Part shown: in pieces, positions 7,173 to 15,541 of the stretch
Position numbering within the stretch: position 1 is the first letter of the stretch
Layout: every line of letters begins with the position of its first letter
Assembly: GCA_039208735.1 (NCBI GenBank)
Contig: JBCCQY010000010.1
Span: 1-64,000 of the forward strand
From: Myxococcota bacterium
GTDB lineage: Bacteria > Myxococcota_A > UBA796 > GCA-2862545
Length of the DNA stretch: 64,000 nucleotides
Reading direction: 5' to 3'
Program-made: the position numbers and the translations under genes
The notes under the pieces: generated by a model
Seen by the model: only the letters and a program-made list of their open reading frames with translations
Databases searched by the model: none
Told to the model about the DNA's origin: nothing

Positions 7173-8546
7173 TCAGACGAGCATCCCGACGACGGCACCC
7201 GTCATGCACGCGGCAAGCATGCCTGCGGCCATCGCTTTGAAGCCCAGCGAAGCGAGATCGCCCATCCGTTCCGGGGCGATTCCACCGATTCCCCCAAGTT
7301 GGATGCCGATCGAAGCGAAATTCGCAAACCCGCACAGCGCGTAACTCGCGATGATGGTGCTGCGTTCGGAGAGGACCGGAACGTCTTGCGAGGCCCACTC
7401 TCCGAGGTGCGCGTAGGCGACGAACTCGGTGAGCACGATCTTCTCGCCCAACAACCGCCCCACCTCGTCGCATTCCGCGAAGGGGATGCCCATGAGAAAC
7501 GCGAGCGGCGCGAACAGCGTACCGAGCAGGACGGAGAGGGAAAGCGGGGTGCGCTCGACGCCGGGGCCGCAGTAGCCCGGCGACCACCCCTGCTCCCCGC
7601 ACTGGGACCACGGCACAAGCCCCACGGCCACATCGACCATTGCGACCAACCCAACGATGGCGATGAGCATGGCGCCAACGTTGATCGCCAACGACATCCC
7701 GTCGGAAGCGCCGCGGGCTGCGGCCTCGACCACATTGGTGGCGGGGCTGGGAAACTCGATCTCAACCTCACCTTGGGTCTGGCTTTCCTCGGTCTCCGGG
7801 ACGACCAACTTGGCACAAACCAACGCCGCTGGCGCACTCATGATCGACGCCATCACGAGATGACCAGCGATATTAGGAATGTCCTCGAGAAATTTCACAT
7901 AGGCGCCCATGACCCCGCCGGCGACCGTGGCGAACCCCGCCGTCATCACAGCCATGAGTTCCGATCGCGTCATGCTGGCCACGAAGGGTCGAACCAGTAA
8001 CGGCGCCTCGGTCTGCCCGACGAAGATGTTCCCCGCCGCAGCCAGGCTCTCAGAACCGCTGGTGCCCAAGGTGCGCACCATCAACCAAGCAATGCCTCGC
8101 ACGAGGCGCTGCATGACCCCCAAGTGGTACAGCATCGACATCAGCGACGAAAAGAAGATGATGGTGGGCAGCACGGTGAACGCGAAGGTGCGCAACGGAG
8201 GCGACAAATTGCCGTCGAAGGTCTGCGACGTTCCGTCCACCACGATTTCGTGCGGCAAGATGGTGCCGAACAGAAAGGCAGCTCCTTCATCCGAAAATCC
8301 CAGCAGCCCTTCAACCGCGCCCCCGACGAACGTGTAGAAGACATCGGCCAGTCGGACCTCCCCCATCGGGGTGGGCAGCGCTGGGGACAGGAGCACCAGT
8401 CCCAGCGCAAGTTGCAGCCCGACCCCCCAAGCAATCGTCCGCCAGCGGATGGAACCCCGGTCTTCAGACGCCAACGCCGCAAGCCCGACCATCACCCCCA
8501 AACCCAGCCCCGAGGTGAGCCGAAGGACCCACGGCTCATCCATCAT
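7173..8546 (-). CDS. nupC: Concentrative nucleoside transporter (CNT/NupC family)
   Basis: FAFTVLPTIIFFSSL, GNIFVGQTEAPL, GFATVAGGV, EFVAY and YALCGFANFASIGIQLGG motifs. Confidence 0.95.
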   Translation of the reverse strand: MMDEPWVLRLTSGLGLGVMVGLAALASEDRGSIRWRTIAWGVGLQLALGLVLLSPALPTPMGEVRLADVFYTFVGGAVEGLLGFSDEGAAFLFGTILPHEIVVDGTSQTFDGNLSPPLRTFAFTVLPTIIFFSSLMSMLYHLGVMQRLVRGIAWLMVRTLGTSGSESLAAAGNIFVGQTEAPLLVRPFVASMTRSELMAVMTAGFATVAGGVMGAYVKFLEDIPNIAGHLVMASIMSAPAALVCAKLVVPETEESQTQGEVEIEFPSPATNVVEAAARGASDGMSLAINVGAMLIAIVGLVAMVDVAVGLVPWSQCGEQGWSPGYCGPGVERTPLSLSVLLGTLFAPLAFLMGIPFAECDEVGRLLGEKIVLTEFVAYAHLGEWASQDVPVLSERSTIIASYALCGFANFASIGIQLGGIGGIAPERMGDLASLGFKAMAAGMLAACMTGAVVGMLV

Positions 8547-9775
8547 GGGGCGGTCGCCCTCACGACGGCCAAAATGGTCCGCGAGCCGATTCCGTGCGTG
8601 CCGGCGAAGGCTTCGATCGTCTGAAAGGGCCGTTGCTTCACGATCTGCGCCACACCCGGCGCATGGATGCCCGCCGCATCGAGCGCATCCTTAGGGGCCT
8701 GGTTTACGAAGCGAAGCGCACGAGAAGCCTCTTCAACCGTGAGCACCACACCATCAACCCTGACCTTGGCGTCGTCGCCGACCCCTGGCGCGAACGTCGT
8801 CACTCCGGGCAGCTCACCCTCCCGTGCCAACGTCCGGTGGGCCTCGTTCCAGATCGACTGGGTAACCCCCACGCCGCCAAGCCCTACCAGCAACAGGGAA
8901 ACGAGCGTGACGCCAACACTCCCAAACACCCACCACCATCCTGACGGCGCGTCGTGGGCCGGCTCGAGCACTGGAGGCTGGTTTCGGCTCCAAAGCGTTC
9001 GCGAAAGGGTATCGGGTGTGCTCGCAAGCCAGCTTTGAAGCGCCTCCAGCACGGCTCGCGCGGTGGGGGGAGGCCGCTTTCCGTTCGGCGCGAGTAGCCG
9101 CATGACCAATTCATCGAGGGCGAGCGGAACGGCGGTTGGTCGACGGCGCTCCCCTTCGAGCATGCGTCGGAGCAACTGGCCAAGCGCTCGGAGGTCTTCG
9201 GCAATCGTGGCGTGATCTGCGCGAATCAACCCATCGTCGAGGAGGCGAGGCACCACGCGGCCTTCTTCGGTGACCAATCCCACCCGAATCGGAGCGATGG
9301 CACCGTGCGCGAGACCCGCCGAGTGCAACGCCACCAATGCTCCAGATACGCCGATCCCGACCTCAACCGCCCGCCGAGGCTCCAGAGGTCGACCATCGGC
9401 CACGAGGTTCGCCACCGTTTGGTCAGGAGGCGGCTCTGTGACGAGGAATCCTTCGGCCGCATCCGTGCCGTAATCGATCACGCGCTGCAGATTCGCGTGG
9501 CGAATGTGCGTCCGACGGGCGGCCGCGCGCAAGAACGCCAATTCGTCTCGGACCGACGCCCCGCCGAGGTCCTCGTGTTCGAACGGGCGCATCCAGACTG
9601 CGGTGAGCCGCGACCCGGGCTCGCGATGGGCTTGAACGATCGGACCTCGATGACCGCGGCCCACGACCGACCCCAGTCGATAGTGACCGCTGTGCTGACC
9701 CTCGACCCGTTCGGCAATAGCCGGACGTTCGCTACCTGGGCCGTGGCCAAAGGCACCGCGATCGGTCTCGGTCAT
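8543..9775 (-). CDS. Membrane-anchored Ser/Thr pseudokinase with C-terminal helix-hairpin-helix (ComEA/PsbU-like) domain
   Basis: Kinase-like N-terminus (YRLGSVVGRG, HANLQRVIDYG, FLVTE) with degenerate catalytic motifs (HGAIAP for HRDIKP, DDG for DFG, no VAIK Lys); TM segment WWWVFGSVGVTLVSLLLVGLGGVGV; C-terminal VNQA...IVKQRPFQTIEAF...GIG. Stop overlaps the nupC start (ATGA). Confidence 0.75.
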   Translation of the reverse strand: MTETDRGAFGHGPGSERPAIAERVEGQHSGHYRLGSVVGRGHRGPIVQAHREPGSRLTAVWMRPFEHEDLGGASVRDELAFLRAAARRTHIRHANLQRVIDYGTDAAEGFLVTEPPPDQTVANLVADGRPLEPRRAVEVGIGVSGALVALHSAGLAHGAIAPIRVGLVTEEGRVVPRLLDDGLIRADHATIAEDLRALGQLLRRMLEGERRRPTAVPLALDELVMRLLAPNGKRPPPTARAVLEALQSWLASTPDTLSRTLWSRNQPPVLEPAHDAPSGWWWVFGSVGVTLVSLLLVGLGGVGVTQSIWNEAHRTLAREGELPGVTTFAPGVGDDAKVRVDGVVLTVEEASRALRFVNQAPKDALDAAGIHAPGVAQIVKQRPFQTIEAFAGTHGIGSRTILAVVRATAP

Positions 9776-9855
9776 TCATGCCCTCCGTCCGCGCGCCGAG
9801 ACGCCTATCACTCTTCCACCGGGACGACGCCAACTGGTTGCGTTACCGGTCGCGG

Positions 9856-10947
9856 ATGTCCGACGGCATCCTCGTCAGTCAGACCCTCCGCGACTTGATC
9901 GCCGGGGGCTCAATCCAAGCTCTGATTCCCGTTCGGGACGATCAGATCCAGCCCTCGAGCCTGGACCTGCGACTCGGCGCGAACCTCTGGCAACTCCAGT
10001 GCAGCTTCCTGCCCGGTGAAACCGGAATCCAGCGCAGGCTGGGCCAGCTGGCCACCGCGTCCCACCGCCTCGACCGAGACCACCCCATCGTGTTGCATCG
10101 GGGTGGGGTGTACCTCGCCGAACTGGAAGAGGTGGTGGAACTCCCTGCCGATGTCTGGGGACGAGGAAATCCCAAAAGCAGCACCGGTCGTCTCGACGTG
10201 TTCGTACGGCTCCTGTGCGAGCGCGGCCACGCGTTCGACACAGTGCCCGCGGGCTACCAAGGGCGTCTCTTCCTCGAGATCACTCCCCAATCGTTCCATG
10301 TCGCGGTACGTCGCGGAGATTGCTTAGGGCAACTTCGCCTGGGTCGGGGTCTCCCTGGTCTTTCGGTCGAAGCCCTTGCCCACCACCAAGCCGAAAGCCC
10401 GTTGTGCATTTGGTCCGACGGCACGGCTGCGCCGATCGACGCACGCCCCCCAAGCATCATCCTTTCGGTCGAACTCGAGCGCGCCGACGACGGGCCCATC
10501 GGCTACATCGCCCGCCGCCACATGCCGCCCATCGACCTGCAGCAACGCGGGCTGCCCATCGACCGCTACTGGGTTCCCTTGGGCCCAGCAAGCGATGGCC
10601 AGGTGCTCGAGCCAGAACAGTTCTACATCTTCGCCACGCGAGAACGCCTGCGCATCCCCCCAGACCTCTGCGCAGAACTCGTGCCCTTCGATGCCACCAA
10701 AGGTGAGCTTCGCACTCACTATGCAGGATTCATCGACTCGGGCTTTGGCTGGGACGAATCTGATCCACGGGCAGGGGCCAAGCTCGTCCTGGAAATCCGC
10801 ACGCATGACGTGCCATTCCTCCTCGAACATGGACAGCCGCTGTTCCGCATCGAATTCGTTCGAAACGAAGCGCGCCCCGACACGGTGTATGGCCGAGGCT
10901 CGAACTACCAGATGCAGGGATTGAAACTGGCTAAACAGTTCGGCTAA
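9856..10947 (+). CDS. dcd: dCTP deaminase, long two-domain type (dUTPase-like fold)
   Basis: QIQPSSLDLRLG, NPKSSTGRLDVFVRL, GELRTHYAGFIDSGFG, HDVPFLLEHGQ and SNYQMQGLKLAKQF motifs. Start re-picked to ATG 9856. Confidence 0.9.
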   Translation: MSDGILVSQTLRDLIAGGSIQALIPVRDDQIQPSSLDLRLGANLWQLQCSFLPGETGIQRRLGQLATASHRLDRDHPIVLHRGGVYLAELEEVVELPADVWGRGNPKSSTGRLDVFVRLLCERGHAFDTVPAGYQGRLFLEITPQSFHVAVRRGDCLGQLRLGRGLPGLSVEALAHHQAESPLCIWSDGTAAPIDARPPSIILSVELERADDGPIGYIARRHMPPIDLQQRGLPIDRYWVPLGPASDGQVLEPEQFYIFATRERLRIPPDLCAELVPFDATKGELRTHYAGFIDSGFGWDESDPRAGAKLVLEIRTHDVPFLLEHGQPLFRIEFVRNEARPDTVYGRGSNYQMQGLKLAKQFG

Positions 10948-10948
10948 G

Positions 10949-12370
10949 CTAGCGGCTCCCATAGGTCGAACTCACGGGGAGCCCCTTCGGGAACGCTTCG
11001 AGGGACACCGAACCTGCCCGATCGAACAAGATGGCTTCCAGCGTCTGCGCGCGATGAGCCAGATCGGAAGGTGGTGGGCGACGGCATCCTCCGTCCACCA
11101 GCTCCTCAGCGAGAAAGCGGACCGCCGCGGCTCGGTCGGGTTGGCGGACCGGATCGATGGCGCAGGCCTGAAACAACGCGATGGACGCAAAGTCGGGGAC
11201 GGCGAACGTCGAGAGGTAGGCCGAGCCCTCCCACACCCCAAGGGCAGGAAGCTCCTCGGGGCATCCTCGACAGACCAAAGGCGTTCCCTGGGCACGCTGG
11301 GCGAAATCTGCCGCATGCCGCGCTTCATGCGTCACGACTGCGGTAGCCACGAACGCCACCAATTGCTCCAGCGCATCCCGAACCCCGGGAATCTGACGCA
11401 CATGCATGCTGCGAACTGCAAAGACGAGAGCTTCTTGCTCGGTCACATCCGGGCATGGATTCTCACCCGTCTCAATGGCCCGATTTCTAAGGTTCGCTTG
11501 TTCTCGGGTCGAAACGCCGTTCCACGGAAGCCCGACGATGCGGTACTCGCTGCCGCAGCTGGCTCGACGATGTACCGATTCAGTAGCTCGAAGCAACCAA
11601 AACCGATCCGCGGCGGTGTCGACCAAGGCATTGACGGATTCGGGGGGAAGCGCTGCGGCCACCTCGGAGCGGACGGCTTGTGCAAACCGGGACGCCAGAG
11701 GGTCCGTCTCCGTATCGAGCACCGGGTCGAGCAGCGGCCAAATCCGGTCTAGCGTGAAGGACGTGACCCGATCGAGCAGGATGACCACGCGCTCTTGGTG
11801 AGCGTGGATTTGGCCAAGCCAGGCGTCGACCGGCCCCGCTTCGTCGACTCGCCGACGCACGGTGACCCCATAGGTACCCCCATCCACCGTGACCGACGCA
11901 TCCATCAGCACGTTGCGGTACGCCTTGAGGAACCACCCGCGGGCCGTAAACTCATCGGCGAGCCGATACGGGACCTCCGCCGACGCCATCACGTCGTTCC
12001 AGGTGCGCACCACGACCTCGAGTTCATCGAGGTGTTGGGCCGGGCCTTGATCGATGAGATGGCCCATGCGGTCCAGAAGGGCCGAGAGGTTGGGGTCGCT
12101 GGCCACCTCGCGTTGCAGACGTTCCCAATGCAGGGCCTTCAATCCGCCAGTGGCTCGAACCCAATCCGGAATCAACTGTTCGTGGACCAACTCGTGATCG
12201 ATGGCCCTCACCACGGCAGGGTTGACCGAAAGCACAGCCCCTTCCACGATTTCAGGGAGTGGAGTCGGGTCGGGAGCGGGGGCTGACCAGGGATAGACCG
12301 CCGCCAGTCCGACCGCACCCACGACCATCGCTCCGCCCATCCAAAGGACGCCCGCTGTCATGCGGTCCAT
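10949..12370 (-). CDS. Membrane-anchored hypothetical protein with HExxH zinc-metallopeptidase motif
   Basis: N-terminal hydrophobic segment and Pro linker; HEARH followed by EGSAY; several Cys. Confidence 0.7.
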   Translation of the reverse strand: MDRMTAGVLWMGGAMVVGAVGLAAVYPWSAPAPDPTPLPEIVEGAVLSVNPAVVRAIDHELVHEQLIPDWVRATGGLKALHWERLQREVASDPNLSALLDRMGHLIDQGPAQHLDELEVVVRTWNDVMASAEVPYRLADEFTARGWFLKAYRNVLMDASVTVDGGTYGVTVRRRVDEAGPVDAWLGQIHAHQERVVILLDRVTSFTLDRIWPLLDPVLDTETDPLASRFAQAVRSEVAAALPPESVNALVDTAADRFWLLRATESVHRRASCGSEYRIVGLPWNGVSTREQANLRNRAIETGENPCPDVTEQEALVFAVRSMHVRQIPGVRDALEQLVAFVATAVVTHEARHAADFAQRAQGTPLVCRGCPEELPALGVWEGSAYLSTFAVPDFASIALFQACAIDPVRQPDRAAAVRFLAEELVDGGCRRPPPSDLAHRAQTLEAILFDRAGSVSLEAFPKGLPVSSTYGSR

Positions 12371-12414: not shown

Positions 12415-12894
12415 ATGGCGACCAAGCTTCTCTTTGTCTGCAGCGGCAACATCACCCGTTCGCCCATTGCGGCAGCCCTGGCGGTTGAACAAGCTCTGAC
12501 GCTGGCGATCGACGTCGAGGTCCAATCGGCGGGCACGTTGCGTATCGACGGCGCTCCTGCGAACGTTCAGATGGAGGCCGCGGCGCGCGAGGTCGGAATC
12601 GACCTGTCCCGGCACCGCAGTCAACCGCTCACCGAGGAACTCGTGCGCTGGGCCGACTTCATCGCGGCGATGGAGCCCCATCATCTCGAAGCCATCGAAG
12701 CGCTCGACCCGGTGGCCCGGGACCGAAGCCGAGCCCTGGGCTCCTTCGTTGGCAAGCCCGAAATCGTGGATCCGACGGGCAGCTGGTTCATCGGACCCTA
12801 TCGCCGTACCCGCGACGAGCTTCGCTTGGCGGTGGAACGCTTCCTCTTCGACGTGCTCAGGCCGTCTCGACCGTCGCCCGAGCCCGGCGAATGA
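12415..12894 (+). CDS. Low-molecular-weight protein tyrosine/arginine phosphatase
   Basis: LLFVCSGNITRS (CX5R P-loop), SAGT, GIDLSRHRS and IVDP motifs. Confidence 0.9.
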   Translation: MATKLLFVCSGNITRSPIAAALAVEQALTLAIDVEVQSAGTLRIDGAPANVQMEAAAREVGIDLSRHRSQPLTEELVRWADFIAAMEPHHLEAIEALDPVARDRSRALGSFVGKPEIVDPTGSWFIGPYRRTRDELRLAVERFLFDVLRPSRPSPEPGE

Positions 12895-13465
12895 ACCGCA
12901 CCGCCACAAAGATGCCGATCAACACAAGCAACAAGGTGAGGCCGGGAAGCAGCAGCGACAGGATGACGGTGGAGATGGCGACAACGTCTTCGATGAGTGA
13001 AAGCGCGGCGTTGCCCACCCCGGCTGTGGTTACGCTCGCCACGGCCCGAACCTTCGCTTTGACAAGGCCCAATGCACTGGCCGACGCGCCGCCCCCTACC
13101 AGCCCGAGCACGGCGGCCAAGAGGGGATCGAGGTCGGTCAACACAGCCGCGGCGAGAACCGTGGCCGCAGCGGGCTTGGCAAGCACCCCAATGGCATCGA
13201 GCGTGTGATCCACGCCAATGATCTTGTCGCCCAACACTTCGACCAGCGTCGCTGTGCCGAAGACCACGGTGGCTCCCCAATGACCCACGAACGCGTAGCT
13301 CTCGTTGAGCTCGAGCATGCCGGACATCGCCACGAGATTCACCGCGAGCAACGGCAGAAAAGTACGCAATCCCGTCGTCGCCGCCAAGCACAGTCCGAGT
13401 GTAATTTGCACCGCAAGTGACGGCGCTACCGAAGCCACGCTCGACCAATCCACTCCGAGGTCCAT
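12857..13465 (-). CDS. DUF4126-family membrane protein
   Basis: LAATTGLRTFLPLL, EVLGDKIIGVDHTLD and SLIEDV motifs; several TM helices. Confidence 0.8.
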   Translation of the reverse strand: MDLGVDWSSVASVAPSLAVQITLGLCLAATTGLRTFLPLLAVNLVAMSGMLELNESYAFVGHWGATVVFGTATLVEVLGDKIIGVDHTLDAIGVLAKPAAATVLAAAVLTDLDPLLAAVLGLVGGGASASALGLVKAKVRAVASVTTAGVGNAALSLIEDVVAISTVILSLLLPGLTLLLVLIGIFVAVRFIRRARATVETA

Positions 13466-13500
13466 GTCACCCCCAACCCGATGGCTCAACCCTAATGCGC

Positions 13501-13938
13501 CTAGAGGCGCAGCTCCTCCATGAGGATGCCGAGCAGGGTGTCGAGCGGCGCCGGTTTGGGAATCATGCGGGCCACGCGGTCCTCGAACAGCTCGTGGAGC
13601 ACAGGGTCCGTGCAGGCGGTGTGTGAAATCACGAGCGGAGGGGTCGGCAGTCGATCGATTTCCTCGAGCAGGACGAGTCCGCCCAGGTGCTCCACGTTCT
13701 CTTGGTACTTGCGGGCCCGCGGACCCAAAATGCGATGAGCGTGGTCGCCAAGAGGAATGAACAGGTCCATGATGACGGCTCGCCAGGGCCGGCTCTGGAG
13801 CAGCTCCACCGCACGCTCGACCGTCTCTACGACCACGACTTCCGTCTCGAGAGACTCTCCAAGAATCTCCGCGGCAAGCGCGACGTTGTCCCGTTCGTCG
13901 TCGACAAACAACAGCCCTTCGTGGGTTCCCTCACTCAT
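13501..13938 (-). CDS. Single-domain response regulator (receiver)
   Basis: LLFVDDE acidic pocket, phosphoacceptor in IMDLFIP, HTA and KP motifs. Confidence 0.85.
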   Translation of the reverse strand: MSEGTHEGLLFVDDERDNVALAAEILGESLETEVVVVETVERAVELLQSRPWRAVIMDLFIPLGDHAHRILGPRARKYQENVEHLGGLVLLEEIDRLPTPPLVISHTACTDPVLHELFEDRVARMIPKPAPLDTLLGILMEELRL

Positions 13939-13951
13939 CGAGCCCGCTCCC

Positions 13952-15541
13952 TCATCGGCGCCACTCCATCCGCTCGAAGTCCCAAACTCGCTTCAGCCGC
14001 TTGTCGGGCAACACGTCGATCTTGAAGGTTCGCCTTCGGCCATCCGCCGCCACCAGCATGATGGTGTGAGGGCCCGCCGCCATCATCTCTCGAAACGGCA
14101 CCGACGAGACGTAGACACCATCGACGTAGACTTCAGCCGGTTGCCGGGCGTCCAGCAGAACTAACCCTTTGCCCGTGGGAGGCGGGGGTGGCGCGACGGC
14201 AGGACCCTCACCGGTGTCGCCCTGGCCCGCTTCGTCGTCGAGGACCGCCACCGCATCTTCCTGCAGTTCCGGCGGGGGCACGACGGGCTTCGGCTCCTCG
14301 ACCGGTTCGACCGGAGGAGGCCCCATCGGGAGCACCAGGGGAGGGTCCGCCTGAGCACCGCGCAGCTCGCCAGGTTGCGGCGGGGTTCCTTCGGCCATGG
14401 GCTCTGGCACGGGCCGGAACCGGATCACGAACAACGACAACGCAGCCAGCACCACGAACGAAACCACCATGCTGGCGAGCAGGGGCACGAGGCCGTGGCG
14501 CAACGAGGAGGGTAACGGCTCGGTTTTTCGTGGAGGCAGAGGGCGGCGGGGCGGCGGTGGCTGAACGATGGGCCGCGTCCCGGGCGGCAAGCCACCTTCG
14601 GTCTGGCGGATCTGCCGCACCATCCGCGTGACTTCATCACGCGCGGTCACCGGGTCGGGCAGCATCCGCGACAACGCTCGTCCGAAGTGGGCCGCCGACG
14701 CAAACCGATCCGCTGGATCCCGCTGCAGCGCTTTGATCAGCACATCGACGAGCGGACCAAAGGTCGCCGGATCGAGGGTCGCGGCATGACGCGCGGCCCA
14801 GTCTGCCTCGAGTTGGTCGCGGATCGTCGCCTTGTCCGCTTCCGGAAACAACGGCTGTCGGGCCGCTAGCTCATAGAGCACCACGGCCAGGCCAAACACA
14901 TCTGCAAGGGGCCCCACCGCCCCACCGGTGGCCTGCTCGGGCGACATGTAGCCCCAGGTCCCACGAATGCTGCCGCGACGCTCGCTCCGCAACACCCCTT
15001 TGGAGATCCCGAAGTCCAGGACTTTCACCAATCCCTGATCCGAAAGGATCAGGTTGCTCGGCTTGATGTCGCGATGCACGAGCTGGAGCGGCTGACCTCG
15101 ATCGTCGGTCGCCATGTGCGCAAAGTGCAACCCATCACATGCCTGGCGCCCCACCTCGGCCACAAACCGAAGCGGCACGGGCATGCCGGTCCGCTCGGTA
15201 TGCGCGAGCACCTTCCGAACGGTCACTCCCTCGACGTACTCCATGACAAGGAAGTACTGGTCCTCGTCTTCGTCATGAGAGAAATCCTGGATTTGAACCA
15301 GGTTCTGGTGCTGCATGGAGGCGCCGAGCCGCGCTTCGTTGATGAACAACTCACGGAAGGTCTCGGACTTCTGGTGCTCGGGCAGAATGATCTTGATCGC
15401 AACGCGCGGCGCCACCCCCTCGACGCCCTCGCGTCGAGCCTCGTAGACGAGCGCCATCCCCCCCCGAGAAAGGGGACGCACAATGCGATATCGCCCGATG
15501 CGTTCCAGCAGCTCGGGCCGAGCCGATCGGCCGTCCGGCAA
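13952..15541 (-). CDS. Transmembrane Ser/Thr protein kinase with C-terminal PEGA-like domain
   Basis: RGGMALVY, VAIK, HRDIKPSN, DFG, GTWGYMSPEQ; TM helix; Pro-rich linker; AEVYVDG...GPHTI beta domain. GAGGAG SD precedes the TTG start. Confidence 0.93.
   Translation of the reverse strand: MPDGRSARPELLERIGRYRIVRPLSRGGMALVYEARREGVEGVAPRVAIKIILPEHQKSETFRELFINEARLGASMQHQNLVQIQDFSHDEDEDQYFLVMEYVEGVTVRKVLAHTERTGMPVPLRFVAEVGRQACDGLHFAHMATDDRGQPLQLVHRDIKPSNLILSDQGLVKVLDFGISKGVLRSERRGSIRGTWGYMSPEQATGGAVGPLADVFGLAVVLYELAARQPLFPEADKATIRDQLEADWAARHAATLDPATFGPLVDVLIKALQRDPADRFASAAHFGRALSRMLPDPVTARDEVTRMVRQIRQTEGGLPPGTRPIVQPPPPRRPLPPRKTEPLPSSLRHGLVPLLASMVVSFVVLAALSLFVIRFRPVPEPMAEGTPPQPGELRGAQADPPLVLPMGPPPVEPVEEPKPVVPPPELQEDAVAVLDDEAGQGDTGEGPAVAPPPPPTGKGLVLLDARQPAEVYVDGVYVSSVPFREMMAAGPHTIMLVAADGRRRTFKIDVLPDKRLKRVWDFERMEWRR

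Follow-up and report, generated by a model that had tools for sequence, protein, structure and literature searches.

A motif-dead receptor kinase with a ComEA-related domain in a Myxococcota bacterium, likely brought beside nupC by erosion of a deoxynucleoside catabolic locus

Introduction

Few bacterial receptor kinases have a known ligand. The locus described here raises the question of why a kinase fold that has lost its catalytic residues, and that is joined through a transmembrane (TM) helix to a candidate DNA-binding domain, is encoded directly before a nucleoside transporter. It lies in a window of 64,000 nucleotides, the whole stretch of DNA analysed, from contig JBCCQY010000010.1 of a Myxococcota bacterium (assembly GCA_039208735.1). 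The original prediction had viewed it as a dedicated module, shared with the dCTP deaminase Dcd, in which a catalytically dead receptor would capture incoming DNA and act as scaffold or regulator of nucleoside uptake through NupC. Below, G000 denotes the genome of this window, f1 its family, P0001 the pseudokinase, and other G0xx and P0xxx labels the compared genomes and proteins.

Results

The features of the locus are as follows.

8543..9775, minus strand: pseudokinase-TM-HhH gene (P0001), an open reading frame of 410 aa
9020..9691, minus strand: pseudokinase domain, residues 29-252, from Pfam/PknE profiles and alignment with intact orthologues
8855..8938, minus strand: single TM helix, residues ~280-307, from hydrophobicity; rich in small residues and conserved in the dead clade
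8546..8776, minus strand: ComEA-related helix-hairpin-helix (HhH) domain, residues 334-410, from the family profile and a model
8543..8546, minus strand: ATGA stop/start overlap with nupC, read in the sequence
7173..8546, minus strand: nupC, CNT-family nucleoside transporter of 457 aa, from Pfam
9776..9855, no strand: divergent intergenic region of 80 bp, read in the sequence
9856..10947, plus strand: dcd, dCTP deaminase of 363 aa, from Pfam

This layout agrees with the original prediction, as both the ATGA overlap and the 80 bp gap to dcd on the opposite strand are present in the sequence. The identities of the two neighbours are likewise borne out: the nupC product, to which the CNT matches of the genome are confined, matches Nucleos_tra2_N, Gate, and Nucleos_tra2_C in Pfam, and the dcd product matches DCD_N and DCD_C. 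The start of P0001, MT(E/D)TDRG, is also found in relatives. Because the order of dcd divergent from pseudokinase-nupC-smc-ftsY is repeated in a second genome, G001, an assembly artefact can be ruled out; contigs of run X1, possibly the source of the assembly, also cover 8002-11500 in one record with no differences.

The kinase fold of P0001 is readily recognized. Its kinase region matches Pfam Pkinase (E 5e-4) and PknE (E 2.5e-5), and its AF2 model matches Aurora-A in a Foldseek search against the PDB (E 7e-13), with PknB among the matches. Motifs were called by alignment against 18 intact orthologues. In P0001 the VAVK Lys is replaced by W61, the αC Glu by A84, and the HRDxKxxN catalytic loop by HGAIAPIR (residues 157-164), while DFG has become DDG (residues 180-182) with its Asp kept; GxGxxG is retained. 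The activation segment/APE region and the αG region are deleted, which had escaped the earlier description. P0001 thus has the fold of an active Hanks-type Ser/Thr kinase and lacks its Lys/Glu pair, HRD, and DFG/activation segment, just as had been proposed for a dead kinase without the Lys, HRD (HGA here), and DFG (DDG here). From this loss of motifs, the protein is predicted to bind neither ATP nor Mg.

The single TM helix also stands, since P0001 contains one hydrophobic helix, at residues ~280-307. Its flanks give no positive-inside signal, with no Lys or Arg in the 15 residues before it and two after it. Proteins that carry the HhH domain with no kinase mostly have N-termini that, read by eye, are signal- or lipoprotein-like. 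Taken with the architecture, these exported carriers lead us to infer that the C-terminal domain of P0001 would lie outside the cytoplasm.

The C-terminal domain (residues 334-410) has an extra N-terminal β-hairpin and helix ahead of the HhH, and its model has a pLDDT of 92.8. Its proposed ComEA-like character is supported at the level of the family but not by P0001 alone. A family profile searched against the PDB places ComEA on top (2DUY, E 1.3e-8; 8DSS, E 2e-6), and HHH_3 is matched at E<=0.1 by 29/45 family members; the P0001 domain by itself gives E 0.04 and 14.5 bits, under the Pfam cut-off of 27. The single domain sequence found no match in the PDB, the query alone came back when homologues of the C-terminal part of P0001 were sought by a word-based search, and scanning GTDB with a single HhH domain yielded 4 loci. 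Foldseek with the domain model had no match at E<=1e-3 (2DUY was second in rank, E 0.71). The VIA structure comparison with ComEA gave Z 5.0 and an rmsd of 2.4 over 55 residues, under the Z values for Fft3 (8.1), TEFM (7.9), and KIF22 (6.5). Extra nuclease-related domains were rare among kinase-free proteins: NuiA occurred in only one of the 45 kinase-free top matches scanned, and four locus proteins included one NuiA fusion and one PLD fusion.

Like ComEA (PF12836; 2DUY, 8DSS, 8DFK), the kinase-TM-HhH family has an N-x-A start, an RPF motif, and a second hairpin of the GIGxKT type, and Gram-positive ComEA is membrane-anchored (PMC9747964), as these proteins are. It differs in the added β-hairpin and helix, in the fusion to a kinase fold, and in hairpin 1. 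The hairpin 1 Gly (G60) and Lys (K63 Vc / K164 Bs) of ComEA are required for DNA uptake (PMC3879209, PMC9747964). The family hairpin, G-V/I-Y/H-x-R/P-G, has no third Gly and no such lysine: the G60 site is Tyr or His (Tyr in 14/19 deo-linked copies) and the K63/K164 site is Gly (also in 14/19). Hairpin 1 of P0001 is degenerate (GIHAPG). Hairpin 2 of P0001 is canonical (GIGSRT), the pattern G[IV]Gx[KR]T is kept, and the deo-linked copies retain its last Gly (19/19), Lys/Arg (17/19), and Thr (19/19). The net charge of the domain is about neutral (-4 to +3).

The kinase-TM-HhH family is present in all seven families of one Myxococcota order. Before counting, we dropped G071 (a kinase-free carrier), kinase-free carriers that were second copies, and G130, G134, G136, and G078; G062, G097, and G137, which are cut by contig ends, were scored neither intact nor dead, and G037, with kinase and HhH in different frames, was counted as intact on its kinase motifs. 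HRD and DFG-type motifs are kept in 58 of the 61 full-length copies examined. The thymidine phosphorylase gene deoA occurs in 139/154 genomes of the order, in the genomes of all 58 intact copies (in G060 as a contig-end fragment only), and in none of those of the three dead copies. Queried with an intact orthologue, Atlas gave generic kinases only. A full-text literature search, extending neither to subscription journals nor to the kinome paper on myxobacteria from 2008, yielded no receptor Ser/Thr kinase whose external domain is ComEA-like. The family is therefore apparently undescribed, and apparently a new receptor architecture.

Linkage to nucleoside genes is conserved in f1 and wider than first noted, as it takes in deoC, aldehyde dehydrogenase genes, deoA, and nupC. 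In 16 of the 21 non-dead f1 copies, from eight genera, deoA lies <=102 bp downstream, making it, rather than nupC, the usual downstream gene; deoA or deoC is <=5 kb away in 19/21, and the typical placement is deoC divergent from kinase-deoA-nupC. Stop/start overlaps join kinase and deoA in G002, G010, and G022, and in G004 the kinase is separated from dcd by deoC together with two genes for aldehyde dehydrogenases. All of these catabolic genes are missing at the window locus, where only dcd divergent from pseudokinase-nupC remains, and neither deoA nor deoC has a match in the genome of the window. One genus provides an erosion series: G004 and G002 are intact with deoC and deoA, G000 and G001 are dead and have neither, and G003 keeps dcd and nupC with receptor gene, deoC, and deoA all absent; deoB had no match in the five genomes of the genus. 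Deletion of the intervening DNA-breakdown genes is thus the likely reason that the pseudokinase adjoins nupC, and the ATGA overlap, with GTGA as its counterpart in G001, would be where the two genes were joined once deoA had gone.

The survey of neighbours supports recurrent nupC/deo linkage within f1, and supports neither the dcd half of the claim nor linkage in other families. The trio of dcd, pseudokinase, and nupC, a deletion remnant, occurs in 2/49 f1 genomes, dcd is near receptor or deo genes in 5/23 f1 genomes having dcd, and linkage to deoA, deoC, nupC, or dcd was seen at 0/40 loci of the other six families, some on contigs with short flanks. As a result, the deo link may trace to one old translocation. 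No family member was found in 17/38 deoA-bearing f1 genomes.

The dead clade comprises at least seven sequences; five others aligned are 40-48% identical to P0001, share its deletion, and show, with it, conserved residues of their own. Between P0001 and the G001 copy, dN is 0.50 and dS 1.61, and the dN/dS of 0.31 compares with 0.11 for nupC, 0.05 for dcd, and 0.15 for a neighbouring kinase. The TM helix is 71% identical between these two copies, and TM identity is 52% in the dead clade versus 28-30% between intact copies whose kinase domains are about equally alike. Judged from these comparisons, purifying selection acts on the dead clade, whose TM helix is unusually conserved. In the kinase tree, G053 groups with the g1 dead clade, an AU test rejects its placement with its own genus (p 0.013), though its deoC and aldH resemble g36 counterparts. 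Because G053 joins this clade, the association of dead copies with absence of deoA represents one or two events. Metagenome scans for the contexts of P0072, P0103, P0107, P0151, P0152, and P0140 gave nothing useful.

Discussion

The probable role of P0001 is that of a non-catalytic membrane tether or scaffold, and its parent family may sense DNA outside the cytoplasm. Our preferred reading, to which we give a probability of roughly 0.4, is that P0001 is a motif-dead but maintained descendant of a Myxococcota receptor kinase that would hold DNA fragments near NupC through its predicted periplasmic HhH domain, with no phosphorylation involved. The intact ancestor would have formed clusters when a periplasmic ligand bound, with DNA the likeliest candidate, and autophosphorylated in trans as other Hanks receptors do. 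In f1 it would have been co-transcribed with deoA-nupC, and its phosphorylation may have acted on deoxynucleoside breakdown, the likely target being DeoA or the control of DeoA. Loss of deoA and deoC would then have made catalytic output dispensable. Selection would have continued on the TM helix and HhH, the former gaining constraint, as if packing against itself or a partner. Since a thymidine kinase is present in the genome, imported nucleosides are proposed to enter salvage rather than deoxyribose breakdown. Counting against this reading are, besides the points listed below for a passenger, the deoA-bearing f1 genomes in which no family member was found, the scarcity of nuclease-related extra domains, and the more typical ComEA-like genes of the genome. 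A more specific version, which we consider rather unlikely, would make the whole intact family a periplasmic-DNA receptor kinase working by HhH cross-linking and trans-phosphorylation, with a thymidine-phosphorylase switch in f1, and would have enzyme loss leave a dead, short-linker DNA tether with a constrained TM helix.

A serious possibility, though short of even odds, is that the receptor is a passenger whose function has nothing to do with nucleosides and lies in envelope, motility, or predation signalling, its ligand being a protein or polysaccharide. It would have inserted a single time between the promoters of deoC and deoA in an f1 ancestor and been inherited there, the dead form being an allosteric partner of one of the many other kinases. 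Consistent with this are the lack of linkage outside f1, the unrelated genes that fill the same gap in several f1 genomes, and the adjacency of the functionally unrelated nupC and smc, a control kept in 23/26 f1 loci with flank and as frequent as that of kinase and deoA. The degenerate hairpin 1 and neutral HhH charge, the HhH-like folds that also turn up in PsbU and T2SS K clusters, and the many other kinases of the genome (163 kinase-like frames, 146 with HRD/DFG-like motifs) point the same way. However, in eight genera the receptor opens a deoA-nupC run whose junctions overlap or are only large enough for an RBS, all three dead copies with genomes fall among the rare deoA-less genomes, and ComEA is the top sequence-profile match. 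Direct scaffolding or regulation of NupC in a dedicated module with Dcd, as originally predicted, is improbable. Although the stop/start overlap in G000 and G001, the more conserved TM helix of the dead clade, and the absence from the NupC of these two genomes of the signal-like N-terminal extension present in relatives would fit it, nupC is directly adjacent in only 2/24 f1 carriers, no nupC lies within 9 kb of the G053 dead copy, G003, G008, and G041 retain nupC with no receptor gene beside it, and dcd is mostly unlinked. Complex prediction for NupC with pseudokinase residues 25-410 scored 0.00 in two runs and was counted for neither side.

That the gene is a decaying relic, retained only through translational coupling to nupC, is very unlikely and largely refuted by the selection data. 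Its dN/dS exceeds that of its neighbours, G003 has lost the gene, and G053 and P0140 have still shorter versions, but an open frame, TM helix, and HhH persist in six full-length sequences that are 40-48% identical to P0001, with dS near saturation, as do the clade-specific residues. Least credible is an anti-phage sensor of DNA injected into the periplasm that depletes nucleotides via Dcd or DeoA. The PADLOC profiles PD-T4-6, mad6, and Stk2 do match, but only the generic kinase domain, for which reason we rejected an anti-phage kinase; the gene is mostly single-copy and sits among housekeeping genes (smc, ftsY), the family tree roughly tracks taxonomy, and dcd is of the housekeeping type, its orthologues in G001 and G004 passing PRK07559.

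Returning to the preferred reading of a maintained tether, P0001 resembles PASTA-type kinases (PknB, PrkC, StkP, Stk1) in its N-terminal Hanks kinase, single TM helix, and C-terminal extracytoplasmic module, and the ligand-induced dimerization described for them (PMC6213207) is the model we borrow for the family. In contrast to them, its sensor is an HhH domain, with no PASTA repeats in Pfam scans of P0001, and its catalytic motifs and activation segment are lost. Bacillus subtilis YabT is a DNA-activated membrane Hanks kinase that lacks an external domain and contacts DNA with a Lys/Arg-rich stretch in the cytosol (PMC3708118), whereas the candidate DNA-binding domain of P0001 lies beyond a TM helix preceded by no such stretch. 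Loss of the VAIK Lys and HRD Asp likens P0001 to Class I pseudokinases, which bind neither nucleotide nor cation and for which a scaffold or allosteric role is to be expected (PMC8141879), but P0001 is a bacterial single-pass receptor with a deleted activation segment.

Deoxynucleoside catabolic genes form deo and nupC-pdp clusters in E. coli and B. subtilis. The f1 locus similarly groups deoC, thymidine phosphorylase, and a CNT importer, but has a receptor kinase embedded as the first gene of the deoA-nupC arm, and in the window genome the catabolic genes are missing. If true, the reading as a periplasmic-DNA receptor kinase would give prokaryotes an equivalent of DNA pattern receptors, observed here in the course of neofunctionalization. 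One genus supplies matched intact, intermediate, dead, and deleted versions, a clear natural series for the origin and retention of a bacterial pseudokinase, and the family offers a small candidate sensor of 77 residues that is predicted to be well folded; therefore, kinase signalling on extracytoplasmic DNA becomes testable. Elsewhere the genome has comEC and two ComEA-like genes of more typical form, which rules out P0001 as a stand-in for a missing ComEA.

Results

The gene of P0001 (410 aa) lies in a three-gene layout, as the original prediction described:

7173-8546, minus strand: nupC
8543-9775, minus strand: pseudokinase gene (410 aa)
9856-10947, plus strand: dcd

The nupC start overlaps the pseudokinase stop (ATGA), and dcd diverges across an 80-bp gap. 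P0001 has a kinase fold both by profile (Pfam E 5e-4; PknE E 2.5e-5) and by comparison of its AF2 model with the PDB (E 7e-13). Alignment against 18 intact orthologues places Trp61 at the catalytic Lys site and Ala84 at the αC Glu site, reads HRDxKxxN as HGAIAPIR and DFG as DDG, and finds the activation segment and αG region deleted, which bears out the predicted loss of catalytic Lys, HRD and DFG. Judged by these residues, P0001 is not an active Hanks kinase (pseudokinase classes after PMC8141879). The single TM helix was also recovered, as one hydrophobic helix at residues ~280-307. The source genome, G000, is 9.4 Mb (completeness 92.7%), and close homologues carry the source label Myxococcota or Myxococcales bacterium.

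The domain profile matches 68 of the order's 154 genomes, mostly with one copy each and with every one of the 7 families represented; in the rest of the class, weaker matches occur in 4 of 28 genomes. Among 1.84 billion representative proteins, 48 of the best 150 of 1315 matches carry a kinase domain, and these comprise 39 with Lys and HRD, 3 N-terminally cut and 6 dead. At the 64 genome loci examined (24 in f1, the family of G000, with G000 included; 40 in other families), HRD and DFG-type motifs are kept in 58, contig ends cut 3, and 3 are dead (G000, G001, G053), which makes the P0001 gene, on sequence evidence, a derivative of a kinase-TM-Pro-rich linker-HhH receptor that is normally intact. 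Variants include P0140, a third degenerate form that lost the N-lobe and kept the first hairpin GVYxRG of intact copies; P0003, whose intact kinase and TM helix are followed by two HhH domains in tandem; and L039:6959-8570 (G037), with HhH and kinase in separate frames (frameshift or assembly error).

The prediction of a ComEA-like C-terminal HhH domain stood in part. A 45-sequence profile of the domain has ComEA as its top PDB match (2DUY, E 1.3e-8; 8DSS, E 2e-6), and 29 of the 45 members match HHH_3 at E<=0.1; however, the P0001 domain alone scores under the Pfam cut-off for HHH_3, and by the first-hairpin test its sequence is not that of a ComEA. The domain model (pLDDT 92.8) shows an additional β-hairpin and helix preceding the HhH pair, and fold searches with it ranked HhH-type domains first, none significantly and with ComEA not at the top. 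The first hairpin of ComEA is described as holding key contacts (PMC3879209, PMC9747964): substitutions at G60 (G60V/E) and K63 weaken or block uptake in Vibrio (PMC3879209), and K164A lowers transformation more than 100-fold in Bacillus (PMC9747964). Across 19 deo-linked copies, the ComEA-critical first-hairpin sites hold Tyr in 14 (G60 site) and Gly in 14 (K63/K164 site), and the K62 site holds Arg/Lys in 14; the P0001 hairpin, GIHAPG, lacks basic residues altogether. The second hairpin follows the canonical pattern in the deo-linked copies (Gly 19/19, Lys/Arg 17/19, Thr 19/19), and the net charge of the domain is near zero. Given the altered first hairpin, canonical second hairpin and near-zero charge, DNA binding is plausible and, if real, would be weaker than or different from that of ComEA. 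The N-termini of kinase-free carriers, mostly signal- or lipoprotein-like when read by eye, favour an extracytoplasmic location of the domain. Only a few of these carriers have nuclease-related fusions. The same HhH variant is fused to a NuiA nuclease-inhibitor domain at L131:1-1026 (G000:C18:34029-35054, plus strand; NuiA E 9e-12), in G050 (L060) and in P0116, and several f1 genomes encode kinase-free membrane-anchored forms with an N-terminal TM, a Pro/acidic linker and HhH (L056-L059, L064, L065).

In f1, the intact gene stands upstream of deoA (thymidine phosphorylase) and nupC and diverges from deoC and two aldehyde dehydrogenases. Of 21 non-dead copies, 16 (8 genera) have deoA <=102 bp downstream of the kinase, and 19 have deoA or deoC within 5 kb. 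Within g1, the genus of G000-G004, the order is dcd-ald-ald-deoC / kinase-deoA-nupC in G004; ald-deoC / kinase-deoA-nupC in G002, with an intact active site and an already short linker; dcd / dead kinase-nupC in G000 and its relative G001, so that the predicted gene order does recur; and dcd / nupC, with no kinase gene between, in G003. Neither deoC nor deoA gave a match in G000, G001 or G003 (92.7, 94 and 95% complete). This series suggests that the trio, proposed as a dedicated nupC-dcd module, is instead what remained after gene loss on both sides.

deoA was found in the genomes of 58/58 intact copies (in G060 as a contig-end fragment) versus 0/3 dead copies; across the whole order, 139 of 154 genomes have a deoA match. 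The third dead copy, in G053, is further reduced and sits beside deoC-ald-ald-dcd, with no deoA match in that genome. On a long branch, its kinase clusters with the dead clade of g1 (SH-aLRT 92), and grouping with intact copies of another genus, g36, was rejected (AU test, p 0.013), while its deoC and aldH group with G052 in g36. The association between dead kinase and missing deoA therefore amounts to one or two events and is suggestive only; draft genomes can also miss genes.

Phosphopentomutase (deoB) had no match in G000-G004, including two genomes with deoA and deoC, so the two steps may be connected by a different mutase in g1. A short aldehyde-dehydrogenase-like gene (~290 aa) always follows the full one in the deoC arm (L023:3815-4759, L028:11920-12780). 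Microcompartment loci with an rpiB-deoC fusion, shell proteins and aldehyde dehydrogenase adjoin the intact kinase in G023 (L026:1-4780) and G044 (L053:4200-9300); they resemble the sugar-phosphate (SPU) microcompartment.

Simple counting against the G001 copy gives dN 0.50 and a nearly saturated dS of 1.61 for the P0001 gene. Constraint is clearly present, though less tight than on the neighbouring kinase, nupC or dcd, and the TM helices of the two copies share 71% identity. Across the dead clade (at least 7 sequences), mean pairwise identity in the TM region is 52% (15 pairs). Intact copies with comparable kinase identity reach 28% in f1 (156 pairs) and 30% in the remaining 360 pairs, and the same-genus intact pair G002/G004 reaches 28%; the windows are crude and the pairs non-independent. 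Linkers measure 14-31 residues in 8/8 dead sequences versus 74-147 in 18/19 intact f1 copies. The conserved helix and short linker suggest that a membrane function was retained in altered form.

Discussion

The most likely reading (probability about 0.42) is that P0001 descends from a receptor whose signalling was directed at deoxynucleoside catabolism and now serves as a non-phosphorylating tether or scaffold. On the outer side of the inner membrane it would hold fragments of DNA, and it would be co-expressed with the nucleoside importer; the imported nucleosides would feed salvage, as G000 has a thymidine kinase.

A close second, itself quite conceivable, is that the location is historical and that neither ligand nor partner has to do with nucleosides. 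The survey of neighbourhoods upheld the proposed linkage in f1 but not beyond: deoA, deoC, nupC and dcd are absent from the fetched flanks of 40/40 loci in six non-f1 families, where the common neighbours are a beta-helix protein and, on the opposite strand, another kinase, and dcd lies near the cluster in only 5 of the 23 f1 genomes possessing it. The nucleoside link is thus confined to one family. Moreover, 17 of 38 deoA-bearing f1 genomes yielded no family member, and in several of these unrelated genes fill the deoC / deoA gap (by eye, chloride channel-, repeat surface protein-, ABC transporter- and microcompartment-like). As an internal control, smc lies <=1.7 kb behind nupC in 23 of 26 f1 loci with enough flank; therefore a pair of genes whose functions have no obvious connection stays together as often as kinase and deoA. 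Possible partners are not scarce, with 163 kinase-like frames in G000.

Both readings are preferred to direct regulation of NupC, which we regard as unlikely, to decay of the gene, which is improbable, and to phage defence, the most remote of all. In most relatives (L021, L022, L023, L026, L028, L032), NupC carries a signal-peptide-like N-terminal extension ahead of helix 1; G000 (7173-8546) and G001, both without deoA, lack it.

We file P0001 as a variant of the single-pass receptor kinases and pseudokinases. PASTA receptor kinases, as described in PMC6213207, share the build of the kinase-TM-HhH family and differ in the sensor domain. YabT, the one DNA-activated bacterial Hanks kinase found, is described in PMC3708118 as sensing cytosolic DNA through a basic stretch and, unlike this family, as having no external domain. 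In agreement with the original prediction, no kinase-TM-HhH receptor was found in the literature searched, at main-text level; a myxobacterial kinome may list this architecture. The architecture is real, conserved, apparently undescribed and directly testable, with a putative DNA-sensing step and a nucleoside link in f1 only.

Beyond dcd, 10949-12370 (minus strand) encodes a protein of 473 aa that has a hydrophobic stretch near its N-terminus and gives no Pfam match; its gene adjoins dcd also in G001 and G004. The genes at 12415-15541, 2.6-5.8 kb from the pseudokinase, encode a low-molecular-weight phosphatase, a DUF4126 membrane protein, a receiver domain and an intact TM Ser/Thr kinase, a candidate partner.
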